DNA of 64,000 nucleotides from Candidatus Latescibacterota bacterium (GTDB taxonomy: Bacteria; Latescibacterota; UBA2968; UBA8231). A model generated the notes under the pieces. It was not told where the DNA came from. It saw nothing but the letters and a program-made list of their open reading frames with translations, and did not search any database. Location: contig SLHA01000007.1 in assembly GCA_007136405.1 (NCBI GenBank), positions 1 through 64,000 of the forward strand, read 5' to 3'. Of the stretch, positions 12,701 through 61,745 are shown in pieces (the stretch's first letter is position 1; each line of letters starts with the position of its first letter). The position numbers and the translations under genes were made by a program.

Positions 12701-12734
12701 TGGCGGTCTACCAATCCAGGAGAGAGGCAGAACC

Positions 12735-14478: not shown

Positions 14479-14545
14479 TCCGTCTCACGGTTCTGTTCAA
14501 CCGGGGTCCGGGCGCGGGCGGAACCGAACGAGGAGAAAGCCGACG

Positions 14546-18093: not shown

Positions 18094-18270
18094 TCTTTGT
18101 CTCCCTGGTCTGTGTCGGCTCCGGGTTCAGCCGGCCGTTGTGTCCATAACGCGGTCACAGCAGCCCCAGCCCGCAGCGCAGTCGTTGAGCACCGGTTCAG
18201 CTGATCTTGCGCAGAGCGGCCTCGAGCTCGACACCCGAGGCCGACCGCCAAAGGTCAGCGGATCTCCCTG

Positions 18271-24184: not shown

Positions 24185-24367
24185 GAGACTCCTCCTGTCG
24201 ATCTCGTGGTCGAAATTGCGGTCGAGGCTGTGGTCAAAGCTGTAAACGAACCCGTCCCGGAAAAGCCACTTCCGGCGGGCCATGCGCTGTCCCTTCGATG
24301 CGCTTCGATGCGCTTCGATAATCTACACCCCGCAGCCAGGCAACGGAAAACCTGCTCTGACGGCTGG

Positions 24368-27897: not shown

Positions 27898-29010
27898 TCA
27901 GGCTACCCGGTAACGTTCCAGCACGTCCGGGTCCAGTTCCACGCCCAGTCCGGGCGTGTCATCCAGGACCAACTCGCCGCCGGCGAATCGCATGGAATGG
28001 CGCACCAGTTGCTGCGCCAGCGGTGAAGGCGCCCGGGTATACTCGGTCAACGGTGCAGCCGCGGCTGCGGTCCACTGCGCGGAAGCGGCCAGCAGCACAC
28101 CGGTGCCGAAGGCATGAGGCACCGGTCGCGCTCCGGTGCGCTGGGCCATTGCCGCGATGCGCTGACCTGGCGTGATACCACCCACACGCCCCAGATCCGG
28201 TTGCACCACGTGAATCCGGCCGATCTGCAGCAGCTGTTCGTATTCCTCCAGCAAGGTCACCGATTCACCGGCGGCAATGCTGATGGAAGAGGCCGCCGAC
28301 AATTCGCCGTATCCCCGTGTGTCGTACGGGTGCAGCGGTTCTTCCAGCCAGAAGATATCGTACGGCGCGAAGCGTTCCACCCGGGCCAGGGCTCCGTGTA
28401 CGTCCCAGCAGCGGCCGGCATCCACCATGAGCGTGACCCGGGGGCCCAGCGCGTCGCGGGCCGCTGCAACCAGTTCCTCGTCCAGTCGCAGATCCGGCCC
28501 CATGGGACCCCAGCCGTATTTCACCGCCCGATATCCGGCCTCGACGAACTGCCGGGCCGATGCGGCGACGCCTTGCGGCCGGTCCGGCCACAGGACACTG
28601 GCATAACACGGCACTGCATCCACCGCGTCCGGACGCAGCAGACGGCGCACAGGCTGCCCGGCGACTTTTCCCTGGATATCCCACAGCGCCATGTCCACGC
28701 CGCTCATCGTGTGGCGGGCCACACCGCCGGGTCCGTACCAGGCCGTGCCGGCGATCATGGCGGCCATGATGCCTTCGGTGTCCATCGGATCCATACCCCG
28801 CACGATGTGCGCGAGCCCGTGACGAAAAGGTGCCGAACGCGGCGACTCGACCACGGCCCGGGCGACGTAGGAACAGGACACGACCTCGCCCAGTCCGGTA
28901 ATCCCGGCATCCGTGTGCACGGCGACCAGCAGGCAGTCCTGCGTGCCATCCGGGATTTCACGGACTTCGGGGAGGCGCAGATGGATGGCTTCCACATGGG
29001 TAATTTTCAC
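27898..29010 (-). CDS. Enolase-superfamily enzyme (MR/MLE family), third paralog
   Basis: GTG start (VKITHVEAIHL) 6 nt after an AGGAG RBS. Capping domain …AGITGLGEV… and barrel domain …FWLEEP…, …DLGRVGGIT…. Confidence 0.75.
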   Translation of the reverse strand: MKITHVEAIHLRLPEVREIPDGTQDCLLVAVHTDAGITGLGEVVSCSYVARAVVESPRSAPFRHGLAHIVRGMDPMDTEGIMAAMIAGTAWYGPGGVARHTMSGVDMALWDIQGKVAGQPVRRLLRPDAVDAVPCYASVLWPDRPQGVAASARQFVEAGYRAVKYGWGPMGPDLRLDEELVAAARDALGPRVTLMVDAGRCWDVHGALARVERFAPYDIFWLEEPLHPYDTRGYGELSAASSISIAAGESVTLLEEYEQLLQIGRIHVVQPDLGRVGGITPGQRIAAMAQRTGARPVPHAFGTGVLLAASAQWTAAAAAPLTEYTRAPSPLAQQLVRHSMRFAGGELVLDDTPGLGVELDPDVLERYRVA

Positions 29011-29177
29011 AGTCAGCTCCTGAGATGGATGGTGGCGCATCGATGTATCGCAGGTTCACGGTGTATCGCAGGTTAACCGCGGCGCGGCGGCGCACCGTCA
29101 TGGCTGGGACTGGAGTCATCCAGGCCCGGCGGCGCACCTTCATGGCCCGGGCTGCCGCATGCTGAAGCCCATCGACG

Positions 29178-29825
29178 TCACGGCAGATCGAGCAGCTGGT
29201 GCAACCGGCACGACAGACGCCAGTCCGGGTGAAGCCGAAGGATGCGCAGGGCTTTGTCCACATACCGGGGCTGCAGAGATTCGGGCTGCAGATAAACCCG
29301 CTCCGCCAACTCGGCCTGGACGTGGGCCGCGCTGAAGCACTCCCCGACCACGTATTTGAGTTCGGTGATGCGCCGGTAGCCGCTGGCAACCGGATACCGC
29401 TTGGGCGAAACCGTCCAGTATTCGATCAGTTCGAACAACTCGGCCGGCGGACTGATGGTGCCGTTAGTCTCGATGTGCAGCCGGTAACCGCACTGCAGGA
29501 GCTGGCGCGCGAGCGGAGCGATATGCTGGCCCAGCGGCTCCCCTCCCGTGATGCAGACCCAACGGGCGGGATGCTCCCGCACCGCGGCGCGGATCGCGGC
29601 CACGGACATCAGACGGAAGTGCTGGAACCGGGTATCACAGAACGCACAGCGCAAGTTACAGTGGGCCAGACGCACAAAGGTCGTCGGCTCGCCGATACGC
29701 CCGCCTTCTCCCTCGATGGAGTAGAAAATCTCGTTGACATGCAGCACGCCATCGTCACGCCATGGTGCCAACGTGTCTGGAAAGGGTGGGGCGGTTTCGT
29801 TCTGCGTGTCTGACGGACTGTGCAT
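29178..29825 (-). CDS. queE: 7-carboxy-7-deazaguanine synthase (radical SAM)
   Basis: QueE-specific cluster motif LAHCNLRCAFCDT. Size ~215 aa. Confidence 0.8.
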   Translation of the reverse strand: MHSPSDTQNETAPPFPDTLAPWRDDGVLHVNEIFYSIEGEGGRIGEPTTFVRLAHCNLRCAFCDTRFQHFRLMSVAAIRAAVREHPARWVCITGGEPLGQHIAPLARQLLQCGYRLHIETNGTISPPAELFELIEYWTVSPKRYPVASGYRRITELKYVVGECFSAAHVQAELAERVYLQPESLQPRYVDKALRILRLHPDWRLSCRLHQLLDLP

Positions 29826-29888
29826 CGATCTCCCGTCTCATCTTTCCGGGGCAGTACCCCGGATCACACCGCTGGTAGGCGCGTGGCG

Positions 29889-33030: not shown

Positions 33031-33267
33031 CGCTCCAGGACTCCTGTCTAAGCTGTTGATTCGGTAGCAATTTACCGCACCTCATGGCCAGGCGGCCATA
33101 TTGTGTTATATATATAACCGGTTGAGGCGGCTGTCAATCGGACCTCAGGGTTTCTTTTCGACCGGTGCGATGCAGAAACGGCATGAGACCGTGGTATTCA
33201 CTTGCTTTTTGCGTAGATTACTATGGTAAGGTATGTGTCGCAACCACGTCCACGGACTCAGGAGGTC

Positions 33268-34062
33268 ATGATGTCTGCCGTACGCCGGCCCGCCGTGGCC
33301 GGTTTGTTTTACCCCGAAGATCCGGAGCAGTTGCGCGCTCAGGTACGATATTTCCTGGACCAGGCGTCGAACCCCGTTATCGACGCGCCCAAGGCCCTCA
33401 TCGTTCCGCACGCCGGGTACCCCTATTCGGGTCCGGTGGCGGGAACAGCCTATACTCAACTAAAGTCTATAGCCACAGGTATCGAGCGCGTCGTCCTGCT
33501 GGGCCCGGCGCACCGGGTTCCACTCAGCGGTGTCGCACTGCCGGAGGCGGAGGCGTTTCAGAGCCCCTTGGGGCAGGTTCCCCTGGATGGGGATGCTTGT
33601 GACGTCCTGCGCCAACTGCCGCAGGTCAGCATGAATGATCGCGCCCATGCCATGGAGCATAGCCTGGAGGTGCAGCTGCCGTTTCTCCAGCACATCCTGC
33701 CGCACGGCTTTCTGCTGACGCCTCTGCTGGTCGGAAACGCCACGGTTACCCAGGTTGCAGCTGTTCTGAACGCAGTCTGGGGTGAATCGGAAACGCTGAT
33801 CGTGGTAAGCTCCGACCTGAGTCACTACAAGGATTACGCCACTGCCCGCTCCATGGACGAGCTCACATCGCGTGCCATCATCAATCTGGACCCTGACGGC
33901 CTGCATCCGGAAACCGCTTGCGGGTGCACAGGCATACAAGGTCTGCTGGCGGTCGCACGCCAGCGCGGGCTCAAGGTGCACCAGTTGGATCTGCGCAACT
34001 CGGGTGATACGGCCGGGACCCGGGACCAGGTGGTCGGATACGGTGCCTATGCCTTCTACTGA
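33268..34062 (+). CDS. AmmeMemoRadiSam system protein B (MEMO1 family)
   Basis: MEMO1 signature AGLFYPEDPEQL...VPHAGYPYSGPVAG...GPAHR. AGGAGG RBS. Confidence 0.8.
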   Translation: MMSAVRRPAVAGLFYPEDPEQLRAQVRYFLDQASNPVIDAPKALIVPHAGYPYSGPVAGTAYTQLKSIATGIERVVLLGPAHRVPLSGVALPEAEAFQSPLGQVPLDGDACDVLRQLPQVSMNDRAHAMEHSLEVQLPFLQHILPHGFLLTPLLVGNATVTQVAAVLNAVWGESETLIVVSSDLSHYKDYATARSMDELTSRAIINLDPDGLHPETACGCTGIQGLLAVARQRGLKVHQLDLRNSGDTAGTRDQVVGYGAYAFY

Positions 34063-34645
34063 ATCGTCGTCAACCCCGGCAACGGGTGTCAGCCCGGAAG
34101 GACGGCGGACCTTACTCGGTGTGGCCTGGCAGACCGTGATCCAACGTGCCGCAGACAGGCCGACGCCGGTGATAAACGCCCGGGACTATCCACCCGAGCT
34201 TCGGCAGGTGCGTGCCACCTTCGTCACCCTGCGGGTGAACGAGGCGTTGCGGGGGTGTATCGGTACTTGCCAGGCGGTTCGTCCGCTGGTGGAAGACGTG
34301 GCCCACAATGCCGCGGCAGCCGCGTCCATGGATCCGCGATTTCCGCCCCTGACTATGTCGGACATCCCGGGATTGCACCTCGAGATCTCGCTTCTCAGCG
34401 TTCCGGAGCCCCTGCCGGTCCATTCGGAAGAGGAACTGTTGGATCAGGTACGCCCCGGCGTGGACGGGCTACTGCTGGAGGAAGGTCCACACCGGGGCAC
34501 GCTGCTCCCGGGCGTGTGGGAGGCTCTGCCTGAACCCCGGGACTTCGTGCGACAGCTGAAGCTGAAGGCCGGGCTCCCGGCGGATTACTGGTCTCCGGAC
34601 ATCGCCGTATACCGGTATACAGTGGAGTCCATTGAGGAAGACTGA
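34049..34645 (+). CDS. AmmeMemoRadiSam system protein A (AMMECR1 domain)
   Basis: AMMECR1 motif LRGCIGT. Start overlaps the stop of the MEMO1-like gene, indicating translational coupling. Confidence 0.75.
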   Translation: MPSTESSSTPATGVSPEGRRTLLGVAWQTVIQRAADRPTPVINARDYPPELRQVRATFVTLRVNEALRGCIGTCQAVRPLVEDVAHNAAAAASMDPRFPPLTMSDIPGLHLEISLLSVPEPLPVHSEEELLDQVRPGVDGLLLEEGPHRGTLLPGVWEALPEPRDFVRQLKLKAGLPADYWSPDIAVYRYTVESIEED

Positions 34646-34945
34646 TATTCGTGTGGTGCCTCTTATGCAATCCGTGGCCAGCATGTATTCAGCTCCCGTG
34701 ACCGCAGCGCCAGGATCGGAGGCCTCTGCTTGTCATGCCGCCGGCGACGGTCGACCTTGTCGCGCCGGCATCAGGCGGTGTTGTCGCGGATCTTGTATCA
34801 TTCCTCTGCGTCGAGTCTGCGAATGCGTACGACGCAGGTAGGAGCACTACCTGGCGGTGGTACGTTCCACGGGTGCATCCGGAACTCGTACCGGCCTCGC
34901 CAGTGCCGGGATCAATCCATCGCATCATCCATGGAGGAGTCCATC

Positions 34946-35791
34946 ATGGGCACTCTGCTGACTGTTGCCGTCGTGCTTGCCGGAATCGGGGCAAGCCATG
35001 CCGACGTGCATTTCGTCGAGGAAATCGTCAACCGGGGATTCGGCCCGCAGCGGATCGGTGCGCGCCGCACGACGAACGAGGTGTACATCAAGGGGGCGCG
35101 CCAGAAAGTGAAGTCCACCATCAGCACCTCGGAACAGACGGCGCGCCAGCTGCGCGATCAGGGCCGATCGCTGCAGACGACCACCATCCTGCGCCTGGAC
35201 GACAAGAATGTGTACGAGGTTGATCTGGAGTCGCAGACTTACGTGCAGCGGCCGGTACCACCAGCGTCCAAACCGGCGGCCAAAAAGGCTGCGGAACCCG
35301 CCAGCACAGATCCGCGTATACGCTTTACCGTCACCGAGACCGGAGACACCACGCGCATAGCGGGCGTGCTGAGCAGACGGGTGATCGCTCGGATGCAGGC
35401 CCGGTACATGGACCCGGAGACCGGAGCGGTTCGCCGGGAAAACCGCTACACCTATGATGCCTGGCTGGCGGCGGACTTCCCTGGCTACAAGGAGATCAAG
35501 GCCTTCCAGCAGCTCCAGGAAGAGTCCACCTCGTTTCCGCCGTTGATCAGCGGCGGCATCCAGCAACTTCAGGAGGTCGTGCAGGACTCGGATGAGCTGG
35601 AAGCGCACCTGCAGGCGCTGGAGGGTTTCCCCATGCGCTCCACCATCCGCGTGACCGTGATGCGGCCAGGCCAGGAAGCAGAGACCGAGGTCTTCCGCCT
35701 GGACCGGCAGATCACGAAGTTTCAACACCATCCCCTGGATGACACCGTGTTCCAGGTGTCCGAAGGGCTGAGTCAGATCAAGACACGGTAA
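34946..35791 (+). CDS. Hypothetical secreted protein
   Basis: Signal peptide MGTLLTVAVVLAGIGASHA. GGAGGA RBS. No recognisable motif. Confidence 0.5.
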   Translation: MGTLLTVAVVLAGIGASHADVHFVEEIVNRGFGPQRIGARRTTNEVYIKGARQKVKSTISTSEQTARQLRDQGRSLQTTTILRLDDKNVYEVDLESQTYVQRPVPPASKPAAKKAAEPASTDPRIRFTVTETGDTTRIAGVLSRRVIARMQARYMDPETGAVRRENRYTYDAWLAADFPGYKEIKAFQQLQEESTSFPPLISGGIQQLQEVVQDSDELEAHLQALEGFPMRSTIRVTVMRPGQEAETEVFRLDRQITKFQHHPLDDTVFQVSEGLSQIKTR

Positions 35792-45671: not shown

Positions 45672-46964
45672 ATGGCTCTTCATCTGGGTCTCGCCCGTGC
45701 CGACATCACGCCACCAGTGGGCATACCTATGGTCGGTTTTGCCGGCCGTGACGACTCGACGGACGTGCACGATCCGCTTACTGCCACGGCCTTGCTGCTG
45801 GTTGACGCCGGAGACCCATTGCTGCTCGTATGCATGGATCTCCTGCAATTGACCGGGGACACGGTGGCCACGTGCCGCCAGGCCATGGCCGTCGCGTCCG
45901 GCGTCCCGGCCGAACGCATCATGCTGGCTTGCGCCCATAATCACTACGGGCCCAACGTCGACCGGGGTGAGGGACGGGACGTCGTCGACGCCTATCGCAA
46001 TCACTTGCTGCACGTGCTGGCCGGGCTGGCCCAACGTGCCGCGGCGGCGCCGGTGGAGACCCGCCTCGGCGTGGGCTGGGGCTCGTCGGACATCGGCATC
46101 AACCGGCGCGAACGGCGCTCCGACGGCCAGATCGTCCTGGGTAACAACCCGGACGGACCCGTCGACCGGGATGTGGGAGTGGCGCGTTTCGACGCGCCCG
46201 ACGGCACGCCGTTGGCCGTCCTCGCCCATTTCGCCTGTCACCCGGTCTGCCAGGGCAGCCGCATGACCGCGTTGTCGGCGGATTACCCGGGCAGCATGCG
46301 CCAGGTGGTGGAGTCATTGGCGGGCGCGCCCTGTCTGTTCCTGCAGGGCGCCGGAGCCAACATCAACCCGATCCGCATGGAACACGCGTATGAACCGGCA
46401 CGGACGCTGGGCACGCGACTGGGCTGCGAAGTGGCGCGCGTCTGGGAAACCATCGAACCGCGGGAATCCGGCGGCGTGGCCGCGGTAACCGAGTGGGTCG
46501 AACTGCCCGGGTACCGGTACGACTCGGAAGCCAACGCCCGGACGCTGCGGGACGAGTTGCGCCAGCAGGCGGAGAAACTGGATGTCCCGGGGGCATCGGC
46601 CAGCGCGCGCTACTGGACTCAGGCCCGGCTGGAGCGGGTCGAGCAGGTGGTGGCGGCCTGGTCCGGGCAAGGAACGCTGGAACCGATCAGGGCCGAGTTG
46701 CAGGCCTGGCGAATCGGCGAGCTGGCACTCACCAGTGCTCCCGGCGAGATATTCAACGAAATCGGCCGCCGGGTAAAACAGGCCTCGCCGTTCCGGCACA
46801 CCTTCTTCGCTGCCTACGCCAACGGCTCCATCGGTTACGTGCCCGTGCGCGAAGCGTATCCGGAGGGGGGCTACGAAGTGACCCACGCCTGTCGCGTGGA
46901 CCCGGAAGCCGGTGATCTGATCGTCGACGCCGGTGTCCGCCTGCTCGGCCAGCTGGTGTCCTGA
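45672..46964 (+). CDS. Neutral/alkaline non-lysosomal ceramidase-like hydrolase (N-terminal domain family)
   Basis: AGGAGG RBS. N-terminal LGLARADITPPVGIPMVGFAGR and CAHNHYGP-type motifs characteristic of the neutral ceramidase N-terminal domain. Confidence 0.55.
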   Translation: MALHLGLARADITPPVGIPMVGFAGRDDSTDVHDPLTATALLLVDAGDPLLLVCMDLLQLTGDTVATCRQAMAVASGVPAERIMLACAHNHYGPNVDRGEGRDVVDAYRNHLLHVLAGLAQRAAAAPVETRLGVGWGSSDIGINRRERRSDGQIVLGNNPDGPVDRDVGVARFDAPDGTPLAVLAHFACHPVCQGSRMTALSADYPGSMRQVVESLAGAPCLFLQGAGANINPIRMEHAYEPARTLGTRLGCEVARVWETIEPRESGGVAAVTEWVELPGYRYDSEANARTLRDELRQQAEKLDVPGASASARYWTQARLERVEQVVAAWSGQGTLEPIRAELQAWRIGELALTSAPGEIFNEIGRRVKQASPFRHTFFAAYANGSIGYVPVREAYPEGGYEVTHACRVDPEAGDLIVDAGVRLLGQLVS

Positions 46965-47224
46965 GTCGCTGATGGACCGGGCAGCGGGGCGAGATAATGC
47001 GCCGAGGGCGCGGACGCAGCGCGTCGCGCCTCCAGCCCAGGTGCGCCACGGCATCCACCTCGTGCAGAGCGGAAGTGAGCTGCTCCATCGACAGCCTGCG
47101 CCCGTTATCTGGCATTTCGGAGCTCGTTACCTCGCGGAGACGGGCGGCGGCCTTTGGCGCTAGTCGCCGCAGTTCCTTCGTCACTGCCGTGTGTCTGCCC
47201 GGCCCGCGCACCCGGAGAACGACG

Positions 47225-49372
47225 ATGACCATGACACCGACCGCGCCCGTTTCGCCGCGCCACAAGCCGGTGCGCAGCACCACGCTGGAACGGCTCCGCC
47301 TCACCCGCCAGGCGGACCTCGACGTCACCGGCCTGCCGCAGCCCCTGCAGCTGGGCGAGGGCTTCCGGCGTCTCCTCGACGCCATCGACGTGCCGGTGGA
47401 ACTGGACGATCTCATCGTCGGGCGCATCCGCGAGGAAGTACCAGACGCGGCCGGGGAAGCCGAACTGCAGCAGATCGTGGCGGCGTGGAACGGACGCCCG
47501 GTACCGCCGTGGATGCTGGACGGAGGGCACGAGTGCTTCGCCTGGGAACGGCTGCTGCGCCTGGGCCTGACCGGGCTGGAAGCTGAGGCCCGCCAGCGGC
47601 TGACCGCGGCCAGGGAGGCCGCGGAACCGCAGGCGGTGCAGGACTTTCTGGCCGGAGCGGAGCGCGTATACCAGGCCTTCCAGCGCTATGCCGAACGTTA
47701 TGCCCGGGCCGCCGCCAGGGCCGGGCTGCCCGAGGCGGCGCAGGCCTGCCGGGCCGCCTCCCAGGGTCCCCCCGGGACGTTTCACCAGGCCTTGCAGCTG
47801 GTGTGGCTGGTGGGCCATGTGTACTGCACCATGACCTGTGCCAATCCCACGCTGACCTTTGGCCGGCTGGACCTGCTTCTGGCGCCGTTCTATCGGAAAG
47901 ACCTGCGCGCCGGACGCCTGTCGCGCCAGCAGGCCGGCGACCTGATCGCCGACTTCTACCTCAAGAACGAACTCATTCTGGGCCGCGGCGAGCACCAGAT
48001 GAGCGGCGGCTCGGAACACGACACAGGCTGGATCCGCAACCTGACCTACGATGCGCCCCAGTACGTGGTTCTGGGGGGACGCCGTCCCGCCGGCGTGCCG
48101 TCGTTCGATGCAGTCACGCAACTGTTCCTGGAGCGCATCGAACCCTCCAACGAAAATCCCGTGATCGTGCTCCGCTACCACCGTGAGCTGTCGGCGCGGC
48201 TGTGGGCGACCGCCTGCGGCAAGATGGCGACCAACGCGTCCATGATGGTCTACAACGACGAATGCGTGATCCCGGCCATGGAAGCGTGCGGAATTCCCTC
48301 TGCGGATGCGGTGACCTACACCCTGCACGGCTGCAACTGGCCGGACATTCCGGGCGTGCAGCGGGCGCTGGACTACCCCATGCCGGTATTGCCCGCACTG
48401 GTGCGGGAGGCGTTGCTGGACCTGGAGGGAGAACTGGACACCATCGAGCCGTTGTACGCTAGCTTCACCGCGCGCTTCGCTGCCCAGGCGGACGATATCT
48501 GCGCGCGTTTTCGCCAGTCCCGCGGCACCTGGGACGACAAGGCTCCCGGGCCGCTGCGGGTGGACGACTGTTTCCTGGACGGTCCGGTACAGACGGGCCG
48601 CTCCTGGAGCCTGGGGGGCGTGCGTTACGCCAATATCGTCTGCGCCTTGATTGCGCTGGCCACCGCGGCGGACTCCGTGGCTGCCGTGGAGGAATTGGTG
48701 GTGCGGCAGCGCCGGGTGCCGCTGCACGAGCTGCAGGCCGCCCTGCAAGATGACTTCGCCGGCCACGAACCCCTGCGACACCTGTGCCTGCAGGCTCCCA
48801 AGTTCGGGCAGGACGACGACCGCGCCGACGTTCACGCCCGGCGGCTCCTGCAGATCACCCAACACCAGCTCGACCTGGCCTCGCGTCCGGGCACGCCGGA
48901 CCAGGTAATCGTCTTCCGCAGCCTGGAGACGGACATGCGGCACATTCCCTTCGGCCGGCAGGTCGGGGCCACACCGGACGGACGCCGGGCTGGTGAACCA
49001 CTCAGCGAGAACACGTCGCCGTATCCCGGATCGTGCCGCCGCGGACTGACGGCCATGCTGTGCTCGGTGGCCAGCCTGCCGCTGCAAAGGATCTGTTCCG
49101 GAGCGCTCAACGTCCGTCTGAATCCCACCCTGGTGACCGGACCGGACGGACAGAAACGCCTGGAAGGACTGCTGCGGGCTTTTTTTGACATGGGAGGCCT
49201 GCAGGCCCAACTGTCTATCGTCGACACAGACGAGTTGCACCGGGCACAGGCTAATCCGGAAGGGCACCGCGACCTGATGGTGCGCATCACCGGGTACAGC
49301 GCCGTTTTCGTCGACATGGCGCCGCAGGCGCAGAAGGAGATCTTCCGGCGCGAGGAGATGAGCCAGGCTTGA
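47225..49372 (+). CDS. Glycyl radical enzyme (PFL2 / glycerol-dehydratase-like clade), substrate unknown
   Basis: C-terminal glycyl radical motif MVRITGYSAVFVDM. Mid-protein catalytic Cys context TLHGCNWPDI. 715 aa. GGAGA RBS before MTMTPTAPV. Confidence 0.8.
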   Translation: MTMTPTAPVSPRHKPVRSTTLERLRLTRQADLDVTGLPQPLQLGEGFRRLLDAIDVPVELDDLIVGRIREEVPDAAGEAELQQIVAAWNGRPVPPWMLDGGHECFAWERLLRLGLTGLEAEARQRLTAAREAAEPQAVQDFLAGAERVYQAFQRYAERYARAAARAGLPEAAQACRAASQGPPGTFHQALQLVWLVGHVYCTMTCANPTLTFGRLDLLLAPFYRKDLRAGRLSRQQAGDLIADFYLKNELILGRGEHQMSGGSEHDTGWIRNLTYDAPQYVVLGGRRPAGVPSFDAVTQLFLERIEPSNENPVIVLRYHRELSARLWATACGKMATNASMMVYNDECVIPAMEACGIPSADAVTYTLHGCNWPDIPGVQRALDYPMPVLPALVREALLDLEGELDTIEPLYASFTARFAAQADDICARFRQSRGTWDDKAPGPLRVDDCFLDGPVQTGRSWSLGGVRYANIVCALIALATAADSVAAVEELVVRQRRVPLHELQAALQDDFAGHEPLRHLCLQAPKFGQDDDRADVHARRLLQITQHQLDLASRPGTPDQVIVFRSLETDMRHIPFGRQVGATPDGRRAGEPLSENTSPYPGSCRRGLTAMLCSVASLPLQRICSGALNVRLNPTLVTGPDGQKRLEGLLRAFFDMGGLQAQLSIVDTDELHRAQANPEGHRDLMVRITGYSAVFVDMAPQAQKEIFRREEMSQA

Positions 49373-49566: not shown

Positions 49567-50904
49567 ATGCCCAGGATCGTCATCATCGGCGCCGGCAGCG
49601 GTTTCGGCGGGCGTCTCTCCGTGGACATCATGTCCCGCCCGGTGTTGCGGGACTCGGAAATCGGCCTGTGCGACATCCACGCCGGTCGCCTCGAGCGGGT
49701 CAGCGACTATGTCCGCCGCACCGCTGAGCACCACGGCCTGCCTACCCGTGTGCGTGCCGACCAGGACCGTCGCAAACTGCTGCCCGGGGCGGATTTCGTC
49801 ATCACCTCGGTGGCCGTGGGCGGTGCCGCTTACTCCGGTTCGCCGGCCCTGGAGGAGGTGGAGATTCCCCGCAAGTACGGCATCGAGCAGTCCGTGGCGG
49901 ACACGGTGGGCGTGGGCGGCGTGTTCCGTTTCCTGCGCACCGGACCCGTGCAGCACCAGTTCTTCCGGGACATGGAGGAGCTCTGCCCGGACGCCTGCGT
50001 GCTCAACCACACCAACCCCATGGCCATGCTGACCTGGCTGCACTCGCTGGATTCCAGCGTGCGCAACGTGGGATTGTGCCACAGCGTCCAGGGCACCACG
50101 GCCAAGCTGGCCCGCATCGCCGGGGTCCCGCCGGAGGAAACCTCGCACTGGGTGGCGGGGATCAACCATCAGGCCTGGGTGCTGCAACTGCGTCACGGTA
50201 AGGAGGACCTGTACCCCCGCCTGCGCGCCGCGCTGGATGACCCGGTAGTGGTTCGGGACGATACGGTGCGGTTCGAGCTGATGAAGCAGTTCGGGTATTT
50301 CGTCACGGAGAGTACTCGCCACAATTCCGAATACCTGCCGTACTTCCGCCGCACGCCGGAGCTGATGGAACGCTTCGGACTGGAGAAGCGGCAGATCGGT
50401 GCGGCGCCGCCGCGCGTACGGGAGTGGATGAAGGATACGGGCGTGGAAGGCGGCGACGGCCCGGTGGGAGCATTGCGCCCGTCCCAGGAGTTCACCACCG
50501 GCATCATGGAGGCCATGCTGACCGACGTACCCTACCGCTTCAACGGCAATGTGATGAACTCCGGCCTCATCGACAATCTGCCTTCCGGATGTTGCGTGGA
50601 GGTTCCTTGCATGGTGGACGCGCGCGGCGTACACCCCTGTCATGTGGGCGCCCTGCCACCCCAACTGGCCGCGCTCAACCGCTCCAATGTGGCCGTCCAG
50701 GAACTGGCCGTCCGCGCCGTGCTGGAGCGGGACCGGGAAGCCGCCTTCCACGCCTGCGCCCTGGACCCCCTGACCGCGGCCGTGGCCTCGCTGGACCAGA
50801 TCCGCGCCATGTTCGACGAGTTGTGGGCCGCGGAGGAACATCTGCTCAAGTGGTTCGATCCGGCGCACACCGGACCGCTGCCGGAGCTCTGCGCGGCCCA
50901 CTGA
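49567..50904 (+). CDS. Glycoside hydrolase family 4 (NAD+/Mn2+-dependent alpha-glucosidase / alpha-galactosidase type)
   Basis: N-terminal Rossmann MPRIVIIGAGSGFG. GH4 catalytic Cys-His motif GLCHSVQG. Confidence 0.8.
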   Translation: MPRIVIIGAGSGFGGRLSVDIMSRPVLRDSEIGLCDIHAGRLERVSDYVRRTAEHHGLPTRVRADQDRRKLLPGADFVITSVAVGGAAYSGSPALEEVEIPRKYGIEQSVADTVGVGGVFRFLRTGPVQHQFFRDMEELCPDACVLNHTNPMAMLTWLHSLDSSVRNVGLCHSVQGTTAKLARIAGVPPEETSHWVAGINHQAWVLQLRHGKEDLYPRLRAALDDPVVVRDDTVRFELMKQFGYFVTESTRHNSEYLPYFRRTPELMERFGLEKRQIGAAPPRVREWMKDTGVEGGDGPVGALRPSQEFTTGIMEAMLTDVPYRFNGNVMNSGLIDNLPSGCCVEVPCMVDARGVHPCHVGALPPQLAALNRSNVAVQELAVRAVLERDREAAFHACALDPLTAAVASLDQIRAMFDELWAAEEHLLKWFDPAHTGPLPELCAAH

Positions 50905-51588: not shown

Positions 51589-51897
51589 ATGGAACCCTCC
51601 CCGGGTTGACGGTGTCCGCGGCACACCACGAGCCGCCGGGCAGACGTGCTCGTGGGTCTTTGTCATCCACAGGAAGATCACTCCGAGTATACGCATCGCG
51701 TTGCGATCGTGCCAGCTCGCGGTTCCGCGACCGCCGTCGGGCCGGCCGAAGGGTCCGCTGCCCGGCGCCAGGTCCTGTTCGCATAGCCCCCTCGTCCAAG
51801 TATGGGTTTCGGCTGGTCAAGCAAGTTTCTGAACAGCTGCATCTCCGTGGACCTGCTGACTGGAGCTGAGCCCCAACTGCCTAGCAAGGAATACAGC

Positions 51898-53397
51898 ATG
51901 ACAGCCGCGATACCCATCGGTACCAACAGAGAGCTTTGCGTCGACTTAGAGCTCATCCACTCGACCAACGCCAGGCTCGCGCTGCAGAAACCCACGCAGA
52001 AGGAACTGTGCTTCCGCTTCGACGCGCCGCACGACGGCTCGTACAACGGATACCACGTGCTCATCCGGGACGGAGACACCCTGCGCCTGTACTACAGGGC
52101 GGGAGACCTGATCACGCCGGACGGGAAAAAGATGCTGGAACTGAAGCAGGCCACCTACACCTGCGTGATCGAGAGCACAGACGGGGTGAACTGGTACCGC
52201 CCTTCTCTGGGGCTGGTGGAAGTCAACGGCAGTACGGACAACAACATCGTGTCGAACCAACCGTCGATCAACGCCGCGTTCATACCTTTCATCGACACCA
52301 ACCCGGCCTGCCCCGCCGACGCGCGCTACAAGGCCCTGGACTACACCCGGAGCAGCGACGCCGCTGGCAAGCCCGCTTCCAGACTGGCCGCCTTCAAGTC
52401 AGCCGACGGATTCCGGTGGACACCCATGTTCGACCAGCCTCTGGCCATGGACGGTGCCTTTGACTCCTCCAACCTCGCTTTCTGGGACCCGACACGACAG
52501 ACCTACTGGGCCTACATCCGCAACTTCCACGACGTTCCGGGGTTTCCCCGCGATGACCGCGACCATCCGGACCTCAACCGGAGGATCCGCGACATCCGAT
52601 GGTCACAGTCGGCGGATTTCCGCCGCTGGAGCCCCCCCGAGCAGCTCGATTTCGGTGGCAGCGCCGATATCCCGTTGTATGTGAGCGCCGTCGTACCATA
52701 CTACCGCGCACCCGGCTTCTTTCTGGGGTTCCCGGCGCGTTACATCGAAAGGCACGACTGGTCGCCGTCGTACGGGCAGTTGCCGGATCCCGTGTTCCGC
52801 CGAACCGTGATGGAGCACCATCCGCGGTATGGGCTGGCCCTGACGGACTGCGCGTTCATGTCCAGCAGAGACGGTAAAAGCTGGCGCCGCTCAGAGGAAG
52901 CGTTCCTGCGTCCTGGACTGGGCCACGCCACCAACTGGCGCTACGGCGACGGTTTCCTGTCCATCGGCATGCAGGAAACGCCACCGGATCTGCAGGGAGC
53001 GGTCAACGATATCTCCATGTATGTTCTGGAGCACTCCTGGCGAGGCAACAAGGAACTGCGCCGCTACACCATCCGACCAGACGGTTTCATGGCTCTGGCG
53101 GCCGGTTCTGTAGTAAGCGAGACCTTGACCAAACCCTTCACCTTTGCGGGAACCCAGCTCAGCCTGAACGTGTCCACATCGGTCATGGGCGGTATGAAAG
53201 TGGAAATGCAGGATGCCGGCGGCCGGGCCATCGAAGGCTTTACCATGAACGATTGTGACGAGATACTGGGCGACCGTCTGGACTACATCGTACACTGGAA
53301 CGGCGCCAGCGACGTTAGTCGTCTGGCCGGCAAAGCGGTACGCATGAGGCTGGTGATGGCCGACGCAGACCTGTTTTCGTTCAGGTTCGAGCCGTAA
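51898..53397 (+). CDS. BNR/Asp-box beta-propeller glycoside-hydrolase-like protein (paralog of 16633-18093)
   Basis: Asp-box-like motifs STDGVNWYRP, SADGFRWTPM, SRDGKSWRRS. C-terminal domain ending VRMRLVMADADLFSFRFEP, shared with the paralog. Confidence 0.6.
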   Translation: MTAAIPIGTNRELCVDLELIHSTNARLALQKPTQKELCFRFDAPHDGSYNGYHVLIRDGDTLRLYYRAGDLITPDGKKMLELKQATYTCVIESTDGVNWYRPSLGLVEVNGSTDNNIVSNQPSINAAFIPFIDTNPACPADARYKALDYTRSSDAAGKPASRLAAFKSADGFRWTPMFDQPLAMDGAFDSSNLAFWDPTRQTYWAYIRNFHDVPGFPRDDRDHPDLNRRIRDIRWSQSADFRRWSPPEQLDFGGSADIPLYVSAVVPYYRAPGFFLGFPARYIERHDWSPSYGQLPDPVFRRTVMEHHPRYGLALTDCAFMSSRDGKSWRRSEEAFLRPGLGHATNWRYGDGFLSIGMQETPPDLQGAVNDISMYVLEHSWRGNKELRRYTIRPDGFMALAAGSVVSETLTKPFTFAGTQLSLNVSTSVMGGMKVEMQDAGGRAIEGFTMNDCDEILGDRLDYIVHWNGASDVSRLAGKAVRMRLVMADADLFSFRFEP

Positions 53398-54504: not shown

Positions 54505-55881
54505 ATGTCGTCTGTGAAAGTAACCGTTGTCGGCGCCGGCAGCGTCGTCTTCTCGCTCGGTCTGGTGAAAGACCTGTGCCTTACCGCAGGTTTGACAGGC
54601 AGCATGGTCCACTTCATGGATATCGATGAGGAACGGCTGGATGTGGTATACCGGCTGGCGCAGCGCTACGCCGAAGACCTGGGGGCGGATCTCCAATTCG
54701 CCCGTACGCTGGACCGCGCCAAAGCCCTGGACGGAGCTGATTTCGTCATCAACACGGCGACGGTCACCCACAACGAGCACTTCATGAAGCGCCGCCGCGA
54801 GATGGTTGCCGGGCACGGCTATTTCTACGGACGCACCGGAATGCCGGAGTATCACAACCTGCAGTTGATGCTGGATGTGGCGCAGGACGTGGAGCGCGTG
54901 GCGCCGGAGGCGTGGATTCTGCTGGCAGGCAATCCCGTCTTCGACGGCACCACTCTGATGGGGCGGGAAACCGAGGTGAAGGTGTGCGGCCTGTGCCACG
55001 GACATTACGGCTACCGTCAGGTCGCCCGCGCCATCGGCCTCGACCCTGACCAGGTGACGTGGCAGGCGCCCGGCCTCAACCACAATATCTGGCTGACCCA
55101 CTTCCACTACCAGGGCCAGGATGCCTATCCCCTGCTGGACCAGTGGATTGCCGCGAGCATCGAGCAGTACTGGCAGGAAAACGAGGAGAAGGGCGTGCCG
55201 GCGCAGTTGTCGCCCGCGGCCATCCACCAGTACCGGATGTACGGCCTGTTCCCCATCGGCGATACCCCGCGGCGCGGCGGCTGGTGGTATCACACGGATC
55301 TGGAGACGCGGATGCGCTGGTACGGTGCCGGCGGCGGCGGTGATACGCCGGCCGGCCGGGACCGCATTCTCAAGGGCAAAGAGGAGAAGTACGCGCAGAT
55401 GAAATCCGCTGCCTACGACGCCCAGGTACGTCCCATCACCCTGTTCGGCGACACGAAGACGACGGAGCAGCACATTCCCATCATCGATGGACTCGTCAAC
55501 GACAACGAATACCGGGCCCAGGTCAACGTCATGAACGAGGGCGCACTGCCCGGCCTGCCGGACGATGTGGCGGTGGAAGTGCCCGCCGTCGTCAACCGGA
55601 TGGGCATTCAGCCGCTCCGCGTCGAGCCGCTGCCCAACAAGGTCATGGTGGAGTGCATCTACCCGGACTGGCTGGCGATGGAACAGGCGCTGGAAGCCCT
55701 GCTCAGCGGCGACAAGTCGATGATGCTATACGGCGTTCTCCATAGTCACCAGACGCGCTCCTATGAGCAGGCGGTGGATGTGCTGGAGGCCCTGTTCGAC
55801 ATCGAACCCAACGAGCCCATGGCCTACATCGAGGACATTCGCGACCACTATGCGTGGCCGGAGCATTGGGCCCAGCCGTGA
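54505..55881 (+). CDS. Glycoside hydrolase family 4 (second paralog)
   Basis: VKVTVVGAGSVVF Rossmann motif. GH4 motif CGLCHGHYG. GGAGG RBS. Confidence 0.8.
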   Translation: MSSVKVTVVGAGSVVFSLGLVKDLCLTAGLTGSMVHFMDIDEERLDVVYRLAQRYAEDLGADLQFARTLDRAKALDGADFVINTATVTHNEHFMKRRREMVAGHGYFYGRTGMPEYHNLQLMLDVAQDVERVAPEAWILLAGNPVFDGTTLMGRETEVKVCGLCHGHYGYRQVARAIGLDPDQVTWQAPGLNHNIWLTHFHYQGQDAYPLLDQWIAASIEQYWQENEEKGVPAQLSPAAIHQYRMYGLFPIGDTPRRGGWWYHTDLETRMRWYGAGGGGDTPAGRDRILKGKEEKYAQMKSAAYDAQVRPITLFGDTKTTEQHIPIIDGLVNDNEYRAQVNVMNEGALPGLPDDVAVEVPAVVNRMGIQPLRVEPLPNKVMVECIYPDWLAMEQALEALLSGDKSMMLYGVLHSHQTRSYEQAVDVLEALFDIEPNEPMAYIEDIRDHYAWPEHWAQP

Positions 55882-59584: not shown

Positions 59585-60580
59585 TCAGGCGAGCCAATCG
59601 GGCGTGGGCAAGCCCTTTTCGCGCAGGAAAACCGGGTTGAACAGCCTGCTCTTGTAGCGCGATCCATGGTCGCAGAGGATGGTCACTATGGTATGGCCTG
59701 GCCCCAGTTCGCGCGCCACCCGAATCGCCCCGGCAATGTTGATTCCAGACGAGCCGCCGAGAATCAGCCCCTGTTCACGCACCAACCCGAAGATGATGGG
59801 CAAGGCCTCGGCATCAGCGATCTGGAACTGGTCATCGGGCCGGAACCCTTCCAGGTTAGCGGTGATCCGCCCCTGGCCGATGCCTTCAGTGATGGAATCC
59901 CCCTCGTCCGCCAGCTCACCGTGCGCGTAGTAGTGATAGAGCGCCGCGCCCATGGGATCGGCCAGATAGATCCTGACGTCCCTGTTGCGCTCCCGCAGCG
60001 CCATCGCCACGCCTGCAAGCGTGCCGCCGGTGCCGACAGCGCAGACGAACGCGTCCACCGTGCCCCCAGTCTGTTGCCAGATCTCCGGTCCCAGATGGCG
60101 GGCATGGCCATCACGGTTGGCGACATTGTCGAACTGGTTGGCCCATATCGCCCCATTCGGGTCTGTCTCGGCCCGTTCCGCGGCGATGCGGCCCGAGACC
60201 TTCACGTAGTTGTCGGGATCGCTGTAGGGGACGGCCGGCACCTCGATCAGCTCCGCGCCGGCGAGCCTCAGCATATCTTTCTTTTCCGGGCTCTGCGTCT
60301 CCGGAATGACGATAACGGTGCGATATCCCCTGGCGCTGCCGATGACGGCGAGACCGATGCCGGTATTGCCGGCCGTGCCCTCGATGATGGTCCCGCCAGT
60401 CCGAAGCAGTCCCTTCGCCTCCGCGTCCTCGATGATCGCCAGGGCGGCCCGGTCCTTGATACTCCCGCCTGGATTGAGGAATTCGCACTTGCCGAGGATC
60501 CTGCAACCGGTCTCCTCCGACGCCCGGCGCAGGCGCAGAAGCGGCGTATTGCCGACCAGGTCCGCCAGCGAATCAGCCAT
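59585..60580 (-). CDS. Cysteine-synthase / cystathionine-beta-synthase family PLP enzyme (second CysK-like copy)
   Basis: GNTPLLRL...NPGGSIKDRAALAII (PLP Lys), GNTGIGLA, GTGGTLAG motifs. 8-nt overlap with the upstream oxidoreductase gene. Confidence 0.75.
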   Translation of the reverse strand: MADSLADLVGNTPLLRLRRASEETGCRILGKCEFLNPGGSIKDRAALAIIEDAEAKGLLRTGGTIIEGTAGNTGIGLAVIGSARGYRTVIVIPETQSPEKKDMLRLAGAELIEVPAVPYSDPDNYVKVSGRIAAERAETDPNGAIWANQFDNVANRDGHARHLGPEIWQQTGGTVDAFVCAVGTGGTLAGVAMALRERNRDVRIYLADPMGAALYHYYAHGELADEGDSITEGIGQGRITANLEGFRPDDQFQIADAEALPIIFGLVREQGLILGGSSGINIAGAIRVARELGPGHTIVTILCDHGSRYKSRLFNPVFLREKGLPTPDWLA

Positions 60581-61745
60581 CGGACGTCACCTCCCCCAGG
60601 TTGAATTGCGGTATCCGCAGCAGCTCGCCATCGTGCAGCGCCGACTGGTGCGCCATGATCCCGCCGACCGTCATGTTGAGCGCCTGCGCCACGTCGATCA
60701 GCGGCGCACGGTCCATCAGGATGGCTTCCACGAACTCGCTCATCAGGTACCCGTGCGACCCCCCGTGGCCGCCGGCCGCCACGCCGGGCGGCAACGGGGG
60801 CCGGCGGATTTCGGGCAGCGCGACGCCTTCCTGGCCGCTGGCATAGTTGCCGTAATACGTGCCGTGCTGGGTCCGGATGCGGCCAGTCTCGCCGCCTTGT
60901 CCCGGGGTATCCCAGCTCACTGCCATACGCGCCATACCGCCCTCACTGGTGCGAAACAGCGCTACCTCGGTGCCGAAGGGATTGCCGAACGAGTTGTTCT
61001 CCGGCTTCAGGTGATCGATGTGACTGGGCATGCCCATGCAGCTGACTTCGGTGAAACTTCCACCGGTGACCCCGACATAGTAGGCGTTGGAGTGGGTCGG
61101 GTACCACTGGGGTGGCAGCCCGGTGCGCCAGCCCTCGTGGGACGCCAGAGGCGTGCCGAAATAATGCCAGTACTCGCCCTCCGCATACACGACCCTTCCC
61201 AGCCTGCCGGCGCGATACAGCTCCCGCATGCAGTAAAGGTCCGCGTGATAGTAGGAGGTCTCGAACATCATGTAGTGCCGGCCGGTGGTCCGGACCGTGT
61301 CGAACAACGCGTGAGCGTCCTCCAGGGACCCGAACACCGCCGGCACGGCACAGGCCACGTGCTTACCCGCCCGCAGCGCTGCCATGGTCAGACGGGCATG
61401 ACTGGGCGCATCCGTGGCCACGAAGACGGCCTCGATGGAATGGTCGGCCAGCATCGCCTCGCACGACTCATAGGTGGTCGCGCAACGGCAGGCGCGCGCC
61501 AACTCGGCGCGCTTGTCGGCATCCAGCTCGGCAACCGCCGCGATCGTCACGTTGGGATGGTCCTGAAAATGGAACGCGGCACCGAAACGGCAGACGCCGT
61601 AACCGGCGATGCCCACCCGGAGCTTCCGGTCGGATACCGGTTGCCACGCCTCACTGCTCGACGGATCGGCAGCCGATGTCTCGAATCCCTGAATGGTGTT
61701 CGACGGATCTATCGGAACCGCGCCGTGCTGCGATGCTTCGTTCAT
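60573..61745 (-). CDS. Gfo/Idh/MocA family NAD(P)-dependent oxidoreductase
   Basis: N-terminal Rossmann LRVGIAGYGVCRFG. Family pattern EKP-like, AV(F/Y)VATD...H. CAGGAG RBS before MNEASQ. Confidence 0.7.
   Translation of the reverse strand: MNEASQHGAVPIDPSNTIQGFETSAADPSSSEAWQPVSDRKLRVGIAGYGVCRFGAAFHFQDHPNVTIAAVAELDADKRAELARACRCATTYESCEAMLADHSIEAVFVATDAPSHARLTMAALRAGKHVACAVPAVFGSLEDAHALFDTVRTTGRHYMMFETSYYHADLYCMRELYRAGRLGRVVYAEGEYWHYFGTPLASHEGWRTGLPPQWYPTHSNAYYVGVTGGSFTEVSCMGMPSHIDHLKPENNSFGNPFGTEVALFRTSEGGMARMAVSWDTPGQGGETGRIRTQHGTYYGNYASGQEGVALPEIRRPPLPPGVAAGGHGGSHGYLMSEFVEAILMDRAPLIDVAQALNMTVGGIMAHQSALHDGELLRIPQFNLGEVTSDG

Follow-up and report, generated by a model that had tools for sequence, protein, structure and literature searches.

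Seven classes of glycyl radical enzyme (GRE) are recognised in a June 2026 review, which still treats whole clades as uncharacterised (PMC13450708). Among the closest described systems are glycerol dehydratase (GD), in which, by the account given there, Glu435 takes a proton from the substrate and His164 gives one to the leaving hydroxyl, and the isomerases YbiW and PflD, which convert 1,5-anhydroglucitol-6-phosphate and 1,5-anhydromannitol-6-phosphate to 1-deoxyfructose-6-phosphate for subsequent aldolase cleavage, the Glu of their Cys-X-Glu (CXE) motif (Glu443, Glu433) deprotonating the C2 hydroxyl (PMC13450708). The motif is retained in all six C-O eliminases and in the three isomerases (HplG, YbiW and PflD) that the review covers (PMC13450708). 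The enzyme described here is encoded at positions 47225-49372 of a 64,000-nucleotide stretch of a Candidatus Latescibacterota contig (SLHA01000007.1; the whole stretch is called the window below), and at the position of this Glu it has a Trp. An earlier reading made from the letters and their translations (the sequence-only reading) had taken it for a short, orphan GRE inside a glycan-degradation locus.

The sequence places the protein in a coherent and widespread GRE clade with a remodelled active site, all of whose members come from uncultured bacteria and of which literature searches gave no description. The overall explanation proposed is that it is a GRE of this clade activated in trans, and that it acts on a sugar-derived substrate by new chemistry, probably C-O cleavage; we give this a probability of about one half. 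Its firmest part, of which there is little doubt, is that the protein is a real, activase-dependent GRE of an uncharacterised clade.

The gene and its product

The open reading frame (ORF) of 715 amino acids (aa) is identical to the public gene call P0001, and the C-terminal part of its translation (47225-49372, + strand) reads ...MVRITGYSAVFVDM.... A longer in-frame ORF of 791 aa opens at ATG 46997 and adds 228 nucleotides (nt) upstream. The GC contents of this extension at the three codon positions are 0.55/0.76/0.78, a non-coding profile, against 0.72/0.48/0.84 in the coding sequence, and the longer ORF was dropped on this profile and on the lengths of the homologues. The start at 47225 was accepted because of the identical public call, the non-coding profile upstream and a GGAG preceding the ATG. 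The gene is separated by 260 nt from its upstream neighbour and by 194 nt from its downstream neighbour. Scans for promoters and terminators around it gave background level only. The 260-nt leader has no Rfam match at the gathering threshold and a folding z-score of 0.76, on which grounds a regulatory RNA there was discarded. The features of the gene are as follows, with the evidence for each in brackets.

47225-49372, + strand: coding sequence of the 715-aa GRE, CNW clade of the PFL2-type GREs (translation, Pfam, public gene call P0001, AlphaFold, Foldseek)
47214-47217, + strand: ribosome-binding site GGAG, 7 nt 5' of the ATG (read from the sequence)
49271-49318, + strand: glycine loop DLMVRITGYSAVFVDM, in which Gly690 (49292-49294) is the radical-storage glycine (Gly in 120/120 homologues, Pfam Gly_radical)
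48317-48352, + strand: cysteine loop YTLHGCNWPDIP, with Cys370 (48332-48334) as the thiyl-radical site and Trp372 (48338-48340) at the position of the CXE Glu (conservation, alignment to GD C433/E435 and to YbiW GCIET)

Pfam assigns the protein a PFL-like domain (PF02901; 219.8 bits, 1e-64) and a Gly_radical domain (PF01228; 63.7 bits against a cut-off of 22.2, 2.6e-17). The AlphaFold model, for which 32 sequences of the family were aligned, has a pLDDT of 85.3 and a pTM of 0.88, and Foldseek matches it to solved GREs of every class with TM scores of 0.73-0.79, E-values down to 5e-35 and identities of 19-24%. Pfam, the model and Foldseek all agree with the ten-stranded beta/alpha barrel fold of the GRE superfamily (IPR004184).

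The published glycyl-radical fingerprint, RVxG[FWY]x6-8[FL]x4Qx2[IV]x2R as given in PMC13450708, is fitted by RITGYSAVFVDMAPQAQKEIFRR except at two positions, where Ile stands for Val and Met for Phe/Leu; both substitutions are invariant in the clade. Gly690 and Cys370 are each kept in 120 of 120 homologues. Aminoacyl radical enzymes, which have Ala, Ser or Thr instead of the radical-storage Gly in the published descriptions (PMC11528403, PMC13450708), are a different case, as the residue here is Gly in every homologue. Cys370 aligns with GD C433 and with the catalytic Cys of YbiW and is invariant in 61 distinct members from both branches of the clade. By Pfam, predicted fold and these two invariant residues, the gene encodes a genuine GRE. 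The terminal glycyl-radical motif and the Gly-Cys active-site context picked out by the sequence-only reading, together with the conservation of both on which it had made the assignment depend, are thus confirmed.

Distribution of the CNW clade

The clade's name, CNW, refers to the invariant Cys-Asn-Trp of the catalytic loop. At least 120 homologue clusters at 55-77% identity were found among 5.8 billion proteins, with lengths of 702-789 aa and a median of 729 aa. The 715-aa protein, which had been called short, is so when set against the 780-850 aa of characterised GREs, but its length is the norm for its own family. A scan of 185,579 species-representative genomes gave 66 loci, all from metagenome-assembled genomes (MAGs), and there is no cultured member among these 66 species-level genomes.

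The closest named relatives, at 77% and 73% identity, are from Latescibacterota. Environmental loci at 48-73% identity come from Latescibacterota, Poribacteria, Planctomycetota, the SAR202 and Anaerolineae lineages of Chloroflexota, Armatimonadota, Lentisphaerota/Victivallales, Verrucomicrobiota and Gemmatimonadota, and a large branch from rumen and gut Clostridia lies at 32-45%. Of the 1.84 billion representatives in a library clustered at 50% identity, 2,125 stand for GRE-like clusters (E <= 1e-30), and in about 30 of these clusters the CNW loop is combined with a GRGEH insert that is described below. One high-scoring neighbour of the clade, cluster P0429, has a canonical G-C-D-E loop and is without the insert, which places the CNW clade beside enzymes of the CXE type.

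Literature searches found no description of the CNW clade, nor of an association of a GRE with DeoC and a kinase or with URO-D. With no equivalog cut-off reached either, the enzyme is well described as an uncharacterised GRE, as had been proposed. Some sources automatically label its homologues as 'formate C-acetyltransferase' or 'trans-4-hydroxy-L-proline dehydratase'.

A few loci are worth mentioning in their own right. In one Oscillospiraceae MAG three contigs carry a CNW copy each (L024, L028, L044), and in another locus (L042) tandem CNW GREs (4714-6903 and 6928-9117) stand behind a single activase. At the marine loci L076-L079, which include Tara mesopelagic samples, the neighbours are a PhyH dioxygenase, a luciferase-like monooxygenase, a Zn-alcohol dehydrogenase, a tyrosine-phosphatase-like gene, PmbA/TldD and a full-length neutral ceramidase.

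Active-site signatures

The cysteine loop of the clade reads T-Y-T-M-H-G-C-N-W-P-D-I-P, with the Asn kept in 120 and the Trp in 119 of the 120 homologues, and homologues at identities as low as 33% still have its C-N-W core (rarely C-N-H). Profile alignment to GD (1r8w) pairs Cys370 with C433, Trp372 with Glu435 and His102 with His164. Pro208 and Thr209 fall at GD His281 and Ser282, and GD Asp447 has no equivalent. The sequence-only reading had considered a dehydratase; in the canonical sense this does not hold, given the Trp at the CXE Glu and the missing equivalents of His281, Ser282 and Asp447. Three further elements were located.

47528-47530, + strand: His102, the retained equivalent of GD His164 (profile alignment to 1r8w; invariant in 61 distinct members)
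47843-47866, + strand: NPTLTFGR strand, with Pro208 and Thr209 in place of GD His281 and Ser282 (profile alignment to 1r8w, conservation)
47981-48064, + strand: family-specific insert GRGEHQM...TGW-RNLTYDAPQY, residues 253-280 (insertion relative to GD and CutC; conservation)

The core of the insert, G253-R-G-E-H-Q-M259, is invariant in both branches, as are R271, D276 and Y280, and in the library of 50%-identity representatives the insert and the CNW loop occur together. Its conservation makes Glu256 and His257 candidates for a relocated acid/base pair, and the insert as a whole a candidate substrate-binding element. A single Cys, Cys370, is invariant clade-wide (61 distinct members, both branches). 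Cys201 and Cys566, tried as a second catalytic Cys for PFL- or RNR-like chemistry, were dropped, being invariant in the environmental branch only.

The subgroups of the clade are not uniform. The environmental subgroup keeps Glu103, Gln279 and Thr597, at which positions the Clostridia types A, B and E (named by their gene neighbourhoods, below) have hydrophobic residues, and types C and D differ around the cysteine loop. Substrates therefore probably differ between subgroups, to judge from these residues, and with consistent differences at Glu103, Gln279 and Thr597 the window enzyme may not be isofunctional with the type A enzymes of Clostridia.

Comparison with the known GRE classes

The profile of the protein scores alike against solved eliminases and isomerases (230-290 bits) and lower against BSS, HPAD and PFL. 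Its best NCBIfam match, the subfamily model TIGR01774, reaches 271 bits against a cut-off of 678, and all equivalog models are far under theirs. For the eliminases the scores and cut-offs are 223/1000 (HpsG), 195/1100 (HypD), 195/1050 (CutC, TIGR04394) and 185/1000 (HpfG). The 1,2-eliminases GD, PD, HypD, HpfG, CutC, IslA and HpsG are marked by CXE, whose Glu forms a hydrogen bond with the substrate or deprotonates it; the loop here is G-C-N-W-P-D, with Trp372 at Glu435. The isomerases share the same mark, their Glu bonding a hydroxyl of the substrate, and the GCIET of YbiW aligns with GCNWP, the PflD-type model NF007437 giving 187 bits against 1109.

Formate lyases (PFL, TdcE), whose cysteine loop has two adjacent catalytic Cys, are no closer. 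The loop here has a single Cys (HGCNW), TIGR01255 gives 72 bits against 994 and PFL structures score 78-108 bits, so that the earlier view that this is not an ordinary PFL, and that its closest homologues would not be such, stands. GRE decarboxylases have a CXE-type cysteine loop and a large subunit of about 870-900 aa, with a small subunit in HPAD. The protein, at 715 aa and without CXE, has neither the loop nor the length of HPAD, IAD or PAD, and scores 111/1150 (NF033715) and 144/1100 bits (NF033718) with their models. Scores with the X-succinate synthases, a class marked by accessory beta and gamma subunits and by residues that bind fumarate, lie under those of the eliminases (BSS 105-176 bits, MASS 100-158 bits).

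Of the individual systems, YbiW/PflD (PDB 8id7, 8yjn, 8yjo, 8id0) gives the best single-sequence PDB matches (E 1e-56) and shares the fold (TM 0.75). Its sugar-phosphate product, which is then cleaved by an aldolase, has a parallel in the kinase and DeoC operon of Clostridia type A. It differs in having the CXE Glu where Trp372 stands here; identity is 23-24%, and members of the CNW clade are about 60-95 aa shorter and possess the GRGEHQM insert.

GD/PD (1r8w/1r9d, 5i2g, 9rco) includes the top Foldseek match (1r8w, E 5e-35, TM 0.77) and the second-best profile match (285 bits). His102 is kept as the equivalent of His164, and in operons of Clostridia type D the GRE has a reductase as its partner, much as dehydratases have alcohol dehydrogenases. 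On the other side, Glu435 is replaced by Trp and His281/Ser282 by Pro/Thr, Asp447 has no equivalent and no microcompartment genes are found at the CNW GRE; given the large polar insert, a simple C3 diol is unlikely as the substrate.

The C-N-cleaving enzymes CutC and HplG (5a0z, 9f3w, 7vua) have the top profile score (289 bits) and the common fold; unlike the CNW GRE they have CXE, and neither cut-cluster nor amine-related neighbours are found at the CNW GRE. The PFL2 of Archaeoglobus fulgidus (2f3o), a GRE of solved structure and debated function that is without an assigned reaction in the review (PMC13450708), is the second-best Foldseek match (TM 0.78), but it is archaeal, only 22% identical and of another clade. 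Two kinds of short GRE paralogue, the TCVE type ('GRE-2', 634-727 aa) and the GCSE type (671-714 aa), occur in the same environmental bacteria as the CNW GRE; they are found in the same phyla, are likewise short and stand beside the same activase clade. They differ in their canonical CXE loop and in lacking the GRGEHQM insert, and are 27-29% identical to the CNW enzyme.

Probable activation in trans

No GRE activase was found in the 64-kb window, either among ORFs of at least 150 aa with CxxxCxxC, by radical-SAM models or by tblastn with two family activase probes, as the sequence-only reading had noted. One radical-SAM gene is present.

29178-29837, - strand: QueE-like gene, the sole radical-SAM gene of the window (CxxxCxxC, at least 150 aa) and outside the GRE system (CNLRCAFC motif, Radical_SAM)

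Its product matches five QueE models at E 1e-15 to 1e-26, all under cut-off (best 93 bits against 300), and NrdG2 at 33 bits, and no PFL-AE or GRE-activase model matched it. The gene had been described as a standard QueE and the only radical-SAM gene; it is the only one and its best matches are QueE models, all of them under cut-off.

Elsewhere in the clade activases are common. The activase hallmark motif GPGIRTTVF-x-GC-x-L-x-C-x-WCHNPE is found in ORFs adjoining the GRE in about 21 of about 38 Clostridia-branch loci, and two such activases that were tested pass TIGR02494 (297 and 365 bits; cut-off 174). In the environmental branch most loci are without an adjacent activase and linkage is rare. 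In one Latescibacterota locus (L015) the activase is immediately upstream, and at two further environmental loci (L009 and L075) one lies 1-3 kb upstream, although there it stands beside a second, different GRE and URO-D-like genes. These three activases are 63-79% identical to each other, and their clade is found in the same phyla as the CNW GRE and elsewhere adjoins the two short CXE-type paralogues with TCVE or GCSE loops.

In three annotated MAGs the CNW GRE and an unlinked activase are probably encoded in one genome, the accession gaps being of the span expected of a single submission: 2,169 (MDP7594123/MDP7596292) and 2,589 (HJN49428/HJN52017) in two 'Pseudomonadales' MAGs and 2,878 (MBD3181987/MBD3184865) in a Poribacteria MAG. 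Activation of the window enzyme in trans, by an activase that would be encoded outside the window and is probably shared with other short GRE paralogues, is the simplest reading. The description of this GRE as an orphan is true of the window only and is not supported for the family, since activases adjoin, lie near or are probably present unlinked in the loci and MAGs just listed.

A module of one or more URO-D-like genes, a very short CXE-type GRE (TCVE or GCSE) and an activase was observed in environmental bacteria (L084-L086, 751-5009; L075, 1498-9805; L009, 4951-9956; L088, 6001-9073; and L091). In L075 it also has an aldehyde:ferredoxin oxidoreductase, and in L009 and L075 a CNW GRE follows within 1-3 kb. 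These short paralogues and their URO-D association also appear to be uncharacterised.

Genome context and the substrate

In the rumen and gut Clostridia the GRE stands in tight operons of several types. Type A consists of IclR/GntR regulators, a Zn-alcohol dehydrogenase, an FGGY kinase, an SMP-30-like beta-propeller protein, a deoxyribose-phosphate aldolase, the activase and the GRE, its kinase scoring 385 bits with the xylulokinase model (XylB, cut-off 380) and its aldolase 236 with DeoC (cut-off 117). Type C has a sensor kinase, a sugar ABC transporter, GH127, the GRE and the activase, and type D the GRE, an aldo-keto reductase and the activase. Type B has unrelated neighbours (sortase, methyltransferase, GT2). 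With an aldolase or a reductase as its partner, the GRE would be expected to form a carbonyl product, such as dehydration or ring-opening isomerisation gives. The retained His102 fits this, as does the presence among the nearest solved relatives of YbiW and PflD, whose product likewise goes to an aldolase.

In four loci of Lentisphaerota, Victivallales and Verrucomicrobiota (PVC group), a GH95 gene of the alpha-L-fucosidase family lies directly 3' of the CNW GRE and slightly overlaps it, forming a conserved pair.

L069, 12072-14582: GH95 gene after the GRE
L032, 9919-12195: GH95 gene after the GRE
L035, 2205-3944: GH95 gene after the GRE
L027, 4642-5859: GH95 gene after the GRE

The connection to carbohydrate metabolism made by the sequence-only reading therefore recurs independently: with GH4 in the window and in L025, with GH95 in four loci, with GH127, with XylB, DeoC and Zn-alcohol dehydrogenase, and with aldo-keto reductase. 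A sugar-derived substrate is favoured by these several independent associations, the window's own neighbours adding little, and we hold it to be somewhat better than an even chance.

Proposed mechanism and alternative explanations

In the mechanism proposed, an activase of the PFL-AE type encoded elsewhere would install the radical on Gly690, from which it would pass to Cys370 as a thiyl radical. This would abstract a hydrogen from a small sugar-derived molecule (a monosaccharide, a polyol or a phosphate of these). His102 may act as the acid that protonates the leaving oxygen, with Glu256/His257 of the insert replacing the missing Glu as the base, and radical C-O cleavage, by dehydration or ring-opening isomerisation, would give a deoxy-carbonyl product. 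In rumen Clostridia such a product could feed the deoxyribose-phosphate aldolase or the aldo-keto reductase. Speculatively, the type A version might convert a polyol phosphate to a 2-deoxy-aldose phosphate, which DeoC would cleave to acetaldehyde and glyceraldehyde-3-phosphate. Taken for itself, C-O cleavage is a tentative assignment, held at well below even odds. A bolder form, in which the clade would be an eighth functional class of GRE with its general base moved from CXE to Glu256/His257 and a sugar transformation new for GREs (for instance pentitol or polyol phosphate to 2-deoxy-aldose phosphate, then DeoC), operating in rumen Clostridia and, as a variant, in uncultured, glycan-degrading Latescibacterota, Planctomycetota, Verrucomicrobiota-type lineages and Poribacteria, is rather unlikely as a whole.

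Several points weigh against this explanation. The replacement catalytic residues are proposed from conservation alone, the loss of the CXE Glu would itself argue against a canonical eliminase mechanism, and the insert is the least confident internal segment of the AlphaFold model, the Gly domain also being of low confidence. The 64-kb window has no activase, accession proximity is indirect evidence for a same-genome origin, and four candidate activases with a similar source pattern (P0166, P0163, P0196, P0209) all come from samples other than that of the window. From the differences at Glu103, Gln279 and Thr597, the window enzyme and Clostridia type A may not share a substrate. The gene order of the window is not kept even in the 77% and 73% relatives, the former having a citrate/2-methylcitrate synthase and an enolase-superfamily dehydratase as neighbours, and with gaps of 194-260 nt co-transcription of the GRE with GH4 is unproven. 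Environmental neighbourhoods are heterogeneous: apart from the GH95 loci the sole recurrent family is URO-D-like (6 of 78 pooled neighbour ORFs, together with L004, L075 and L084-86), and no URO-D-like gene was found in the window. It is also odd for an O2-labile enzyme that the PhyH and luciferase-like monooxygenase families, for which O2 is usually required, stand beside the marine CNW GREs.

The alternative that survives best is that the reaction type itself is new for GREs, such as C-C cleavage or formation or the reductive dehydroxylation of a sugar derivative, so that loss of the Glu would mean different chemistry and not a relocated base. The change of Glu to Trp, the lost equivalents of GD His281/Ser282/Asp447, the new invariant polar insert and the equal distance of the protein from all known classes (19-24% identity) are in its favour, as is the retention of CXE in the characterised C-O eliminases and isomerases that the review covers (PMC13450708). 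His102 is nevertheless retained, the aldolase and reductase partners fit a carbonyl-forming dehydration or isomerisation, the neighbouring cluster P0429 still has GCDE, and the single invariant Cys makes multi-Cys chemistry of the PFL or RNR kind improbable. We regard a new reaction type as unlikely, at something over one chance in five.

A substrate not derived from carbohydrate (from lipid, amino acid or aromatic compounds), with the glycosidase neighbours reflecting glycan-rich genomes, is quite unlikely. The recurrent URO-D-like neighbour, of a decarboxylase or methyltransferase fold, would suit it, as would ceramidase-like proteins near the GRE in three lineages, the esterases, PmbA/TldD and citrate/2-methylcitrate synthase seen as neighbours elsewhere, and the non-catabolic neighbours of Clostridia type B. 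Against these stand the sugar-processing partners, with independent origins in five or more kinds of operon or gene pair across phyla, and the highly polar character of the invariant active-site candidates.

A C-S lyase (sulfo-lyase) freeing sulfite from a sulfonated sugar metabolite is improbable. The sequence-only reading had thought such an enzyme compatible with two CysK-like genes of the window. Both exist as PALP genes (12576-13622, + strand, and 59585-60586, - strand), but they are unlinked to the GRE, at about 34 kb and more than 10 kb. A TauE/SafE-family permease (9073-9873, + strand) ends 35 nt 5' of the GRE in L021, a locus that also has an anSME-like radical-SAM/SPASM protein (4581-5810, - strand), and some loci of the PVC type have sulfatase and FGE genes. 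The permease is found in one of about 70 loci, being absent from all others and from the window, for which the lead was dropped; the characterised C-S lyases HpsG (6lon), IseG (5ymr) and IslA (7kq3) score no closer than other eliminases or other GREs, and no sulfite reductase or sulfonate transporter is nearby.

That this is an ordinary, merely divergent-looking member of a characterised family (GD/PD, HypD, CutC, YbiW/PflD or PFL) is very improbable, since the top PDB sequence matches to YbiW, CutC and GD and the automatic source labels are outweighed by equivalog scores of 72-223 bits against cut-offs of 994-1109, the absence of CXE and of a Cys-Cys pair, and identities of 19-24%. It is equally hard to credit that the protein is a true orphan or non-radical relic free of any activase, or is activated by the QueE-like protein: the window has no PFL-AE-type gene within its 64 kb, most environmental loci lack an adjacent activase, and QueE, NrdG and PFL-AE are related radical-SAM enzymes (the window protein having its 33-bit NrdG2 match), yet strict purifying selection acts on the Gly and Cys loops in the different phyla, at least 24 loci have canonical activases and three MAGs probably encode one in the same genome, while the QueE-like gene is matched far better by five QueE models than by NrdG2 and lies 17 kb off among unrelated genes.

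Neighbouring genes in the window

The window has a GC content of 63.6% and matches contigs of the unannotated MAGs GCA_007129025.1 and GCA_003567195.1. TamB and Omp85 at 35.8-42.6 kb indicate that it comes from a diderm bacterium. The gene order at the GRE is IlvD, SDR, ceramidase-like, GRE, GH4, two unknown proteins, a histidine phosphatase and a second GH4 (54505-55881). The two immediate neighbours are given as context only.

45672-46964, + strand: distant ceramidase-like hydrolase, 260 nt 5' of the GRE (Ceramidase_alk 33 bits, cut-off 32.1; PDB 2zws E 1.4e-6 over 64 residues)
49567-50904, + strand: GH4 alpha-galactosidase-type glycosidase, 194 nt 3' of the GRE (Pfam GH4; NF011657 507 bits against 486)

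Of the flanking genes named by the sequence-only reading, the downstream GH4 is well founded, but the upstream neutral-ceramidase-like assignment comes down to a 33-bit and a 64-residue match. A homologue of the ceramidase-like gene lies near the GRE in L014 only, with a full-length ceramidase 3 kb from the GRE in the marine L078/L079, and GH4 recurs near the GRE in L025 only. IlvD, considered as a pathway partner, was rejected because it is a genuine dihydroxy-acid dehydratase (1064 bits, the cut-off being 710; best named matches Latescibacterota 77% and Acidobacteriota 75%) next to the housekeeping TamB and Omp85; an IlvD-family gene is also found directly 3' of the GRE in L075. With TamB, Omp85 and a true IlvD upstream and a mixed content overall, calling this a glycan-degradation locus was an overstatement.

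The BNR glycosidases reported earlier were not recovered, there being no Pfam BNR match in the window and no strict or loose Asp-box by regular expression in its unannotated ORFs. Two paralogues (16633-18126, - strand, and 51802-53397, + strand; 36% identical, E 2e-95), the second 2.4 kb 3' of the GRE, have degenerate S-x-D-G-x-x-W motifs (STDGVNW, SADGFRW, SRDGKSW) and no Pfam, NCBIfam or PDB match. They are the likely candidates for the genes that were meant and may represent an unrecognised beta-propeller glycosidase-like family.

The rest of the window includes an acyl-CoA synthetase, ABC exporters, peptidases, HSP20s and an encapsulin shell protein (Linocin_M18, 263 bits; 8106-9074, - strand). 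A c-di-GMP-I riboswitch (RF01051; 13838-13956, + strand; 40.6 bits against a gathering threshold of 35) lies upstream of an ORF without Pfam match (14306-15460, + strand). Memo (33217-34062, + strand) and AMMECR1 (33821-34645, + strand) are side by side with no adjacent radical-SAM partner of AmmeMemoRadiSam, the ORF that follows (34646-35791) having neither a Pfam match nor a CxxxCxxC motif. Three enolase-superfamily (MR_MLE) genes are scattered in the window (9496-11199, + strand; 23051-24322, - strand; 27898-29055, - strand), and it also has an RraA-like aldolase, a glucuronyl-esterase-like protein and a CBM9 protein. This set suggests a sugar-acid metabolism which is positionally unrelated to the GRE.

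Implications for the family

The anaerobic reactions of GREs are chemically demanding, and until now every clade to which a function was assigned has brought a new pathway to light, as with choline to trimethylamine, hydroxyproline, sulfonates and anhydro-sugars. A clade which has lost the CXE Glu and gained an invariant polar insert has probably either solved radical C-O cleavage in a new way or adopted new chemistry. For the annotation of such genes, the lack of an activase nearby is no evidence of an orphan GRE, as one activase here usually adjoins another GRE paralogue. The Clostridia operons (kinase, DeoC, activase and GRE; or GRE, reductase and activase) offer a directly testable biochemical entry point. 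If the bolder form, with an eighth functional class, is true, the CNW enzymes would provide a redox-neutral radical route for the fermentation of reduced sugars.

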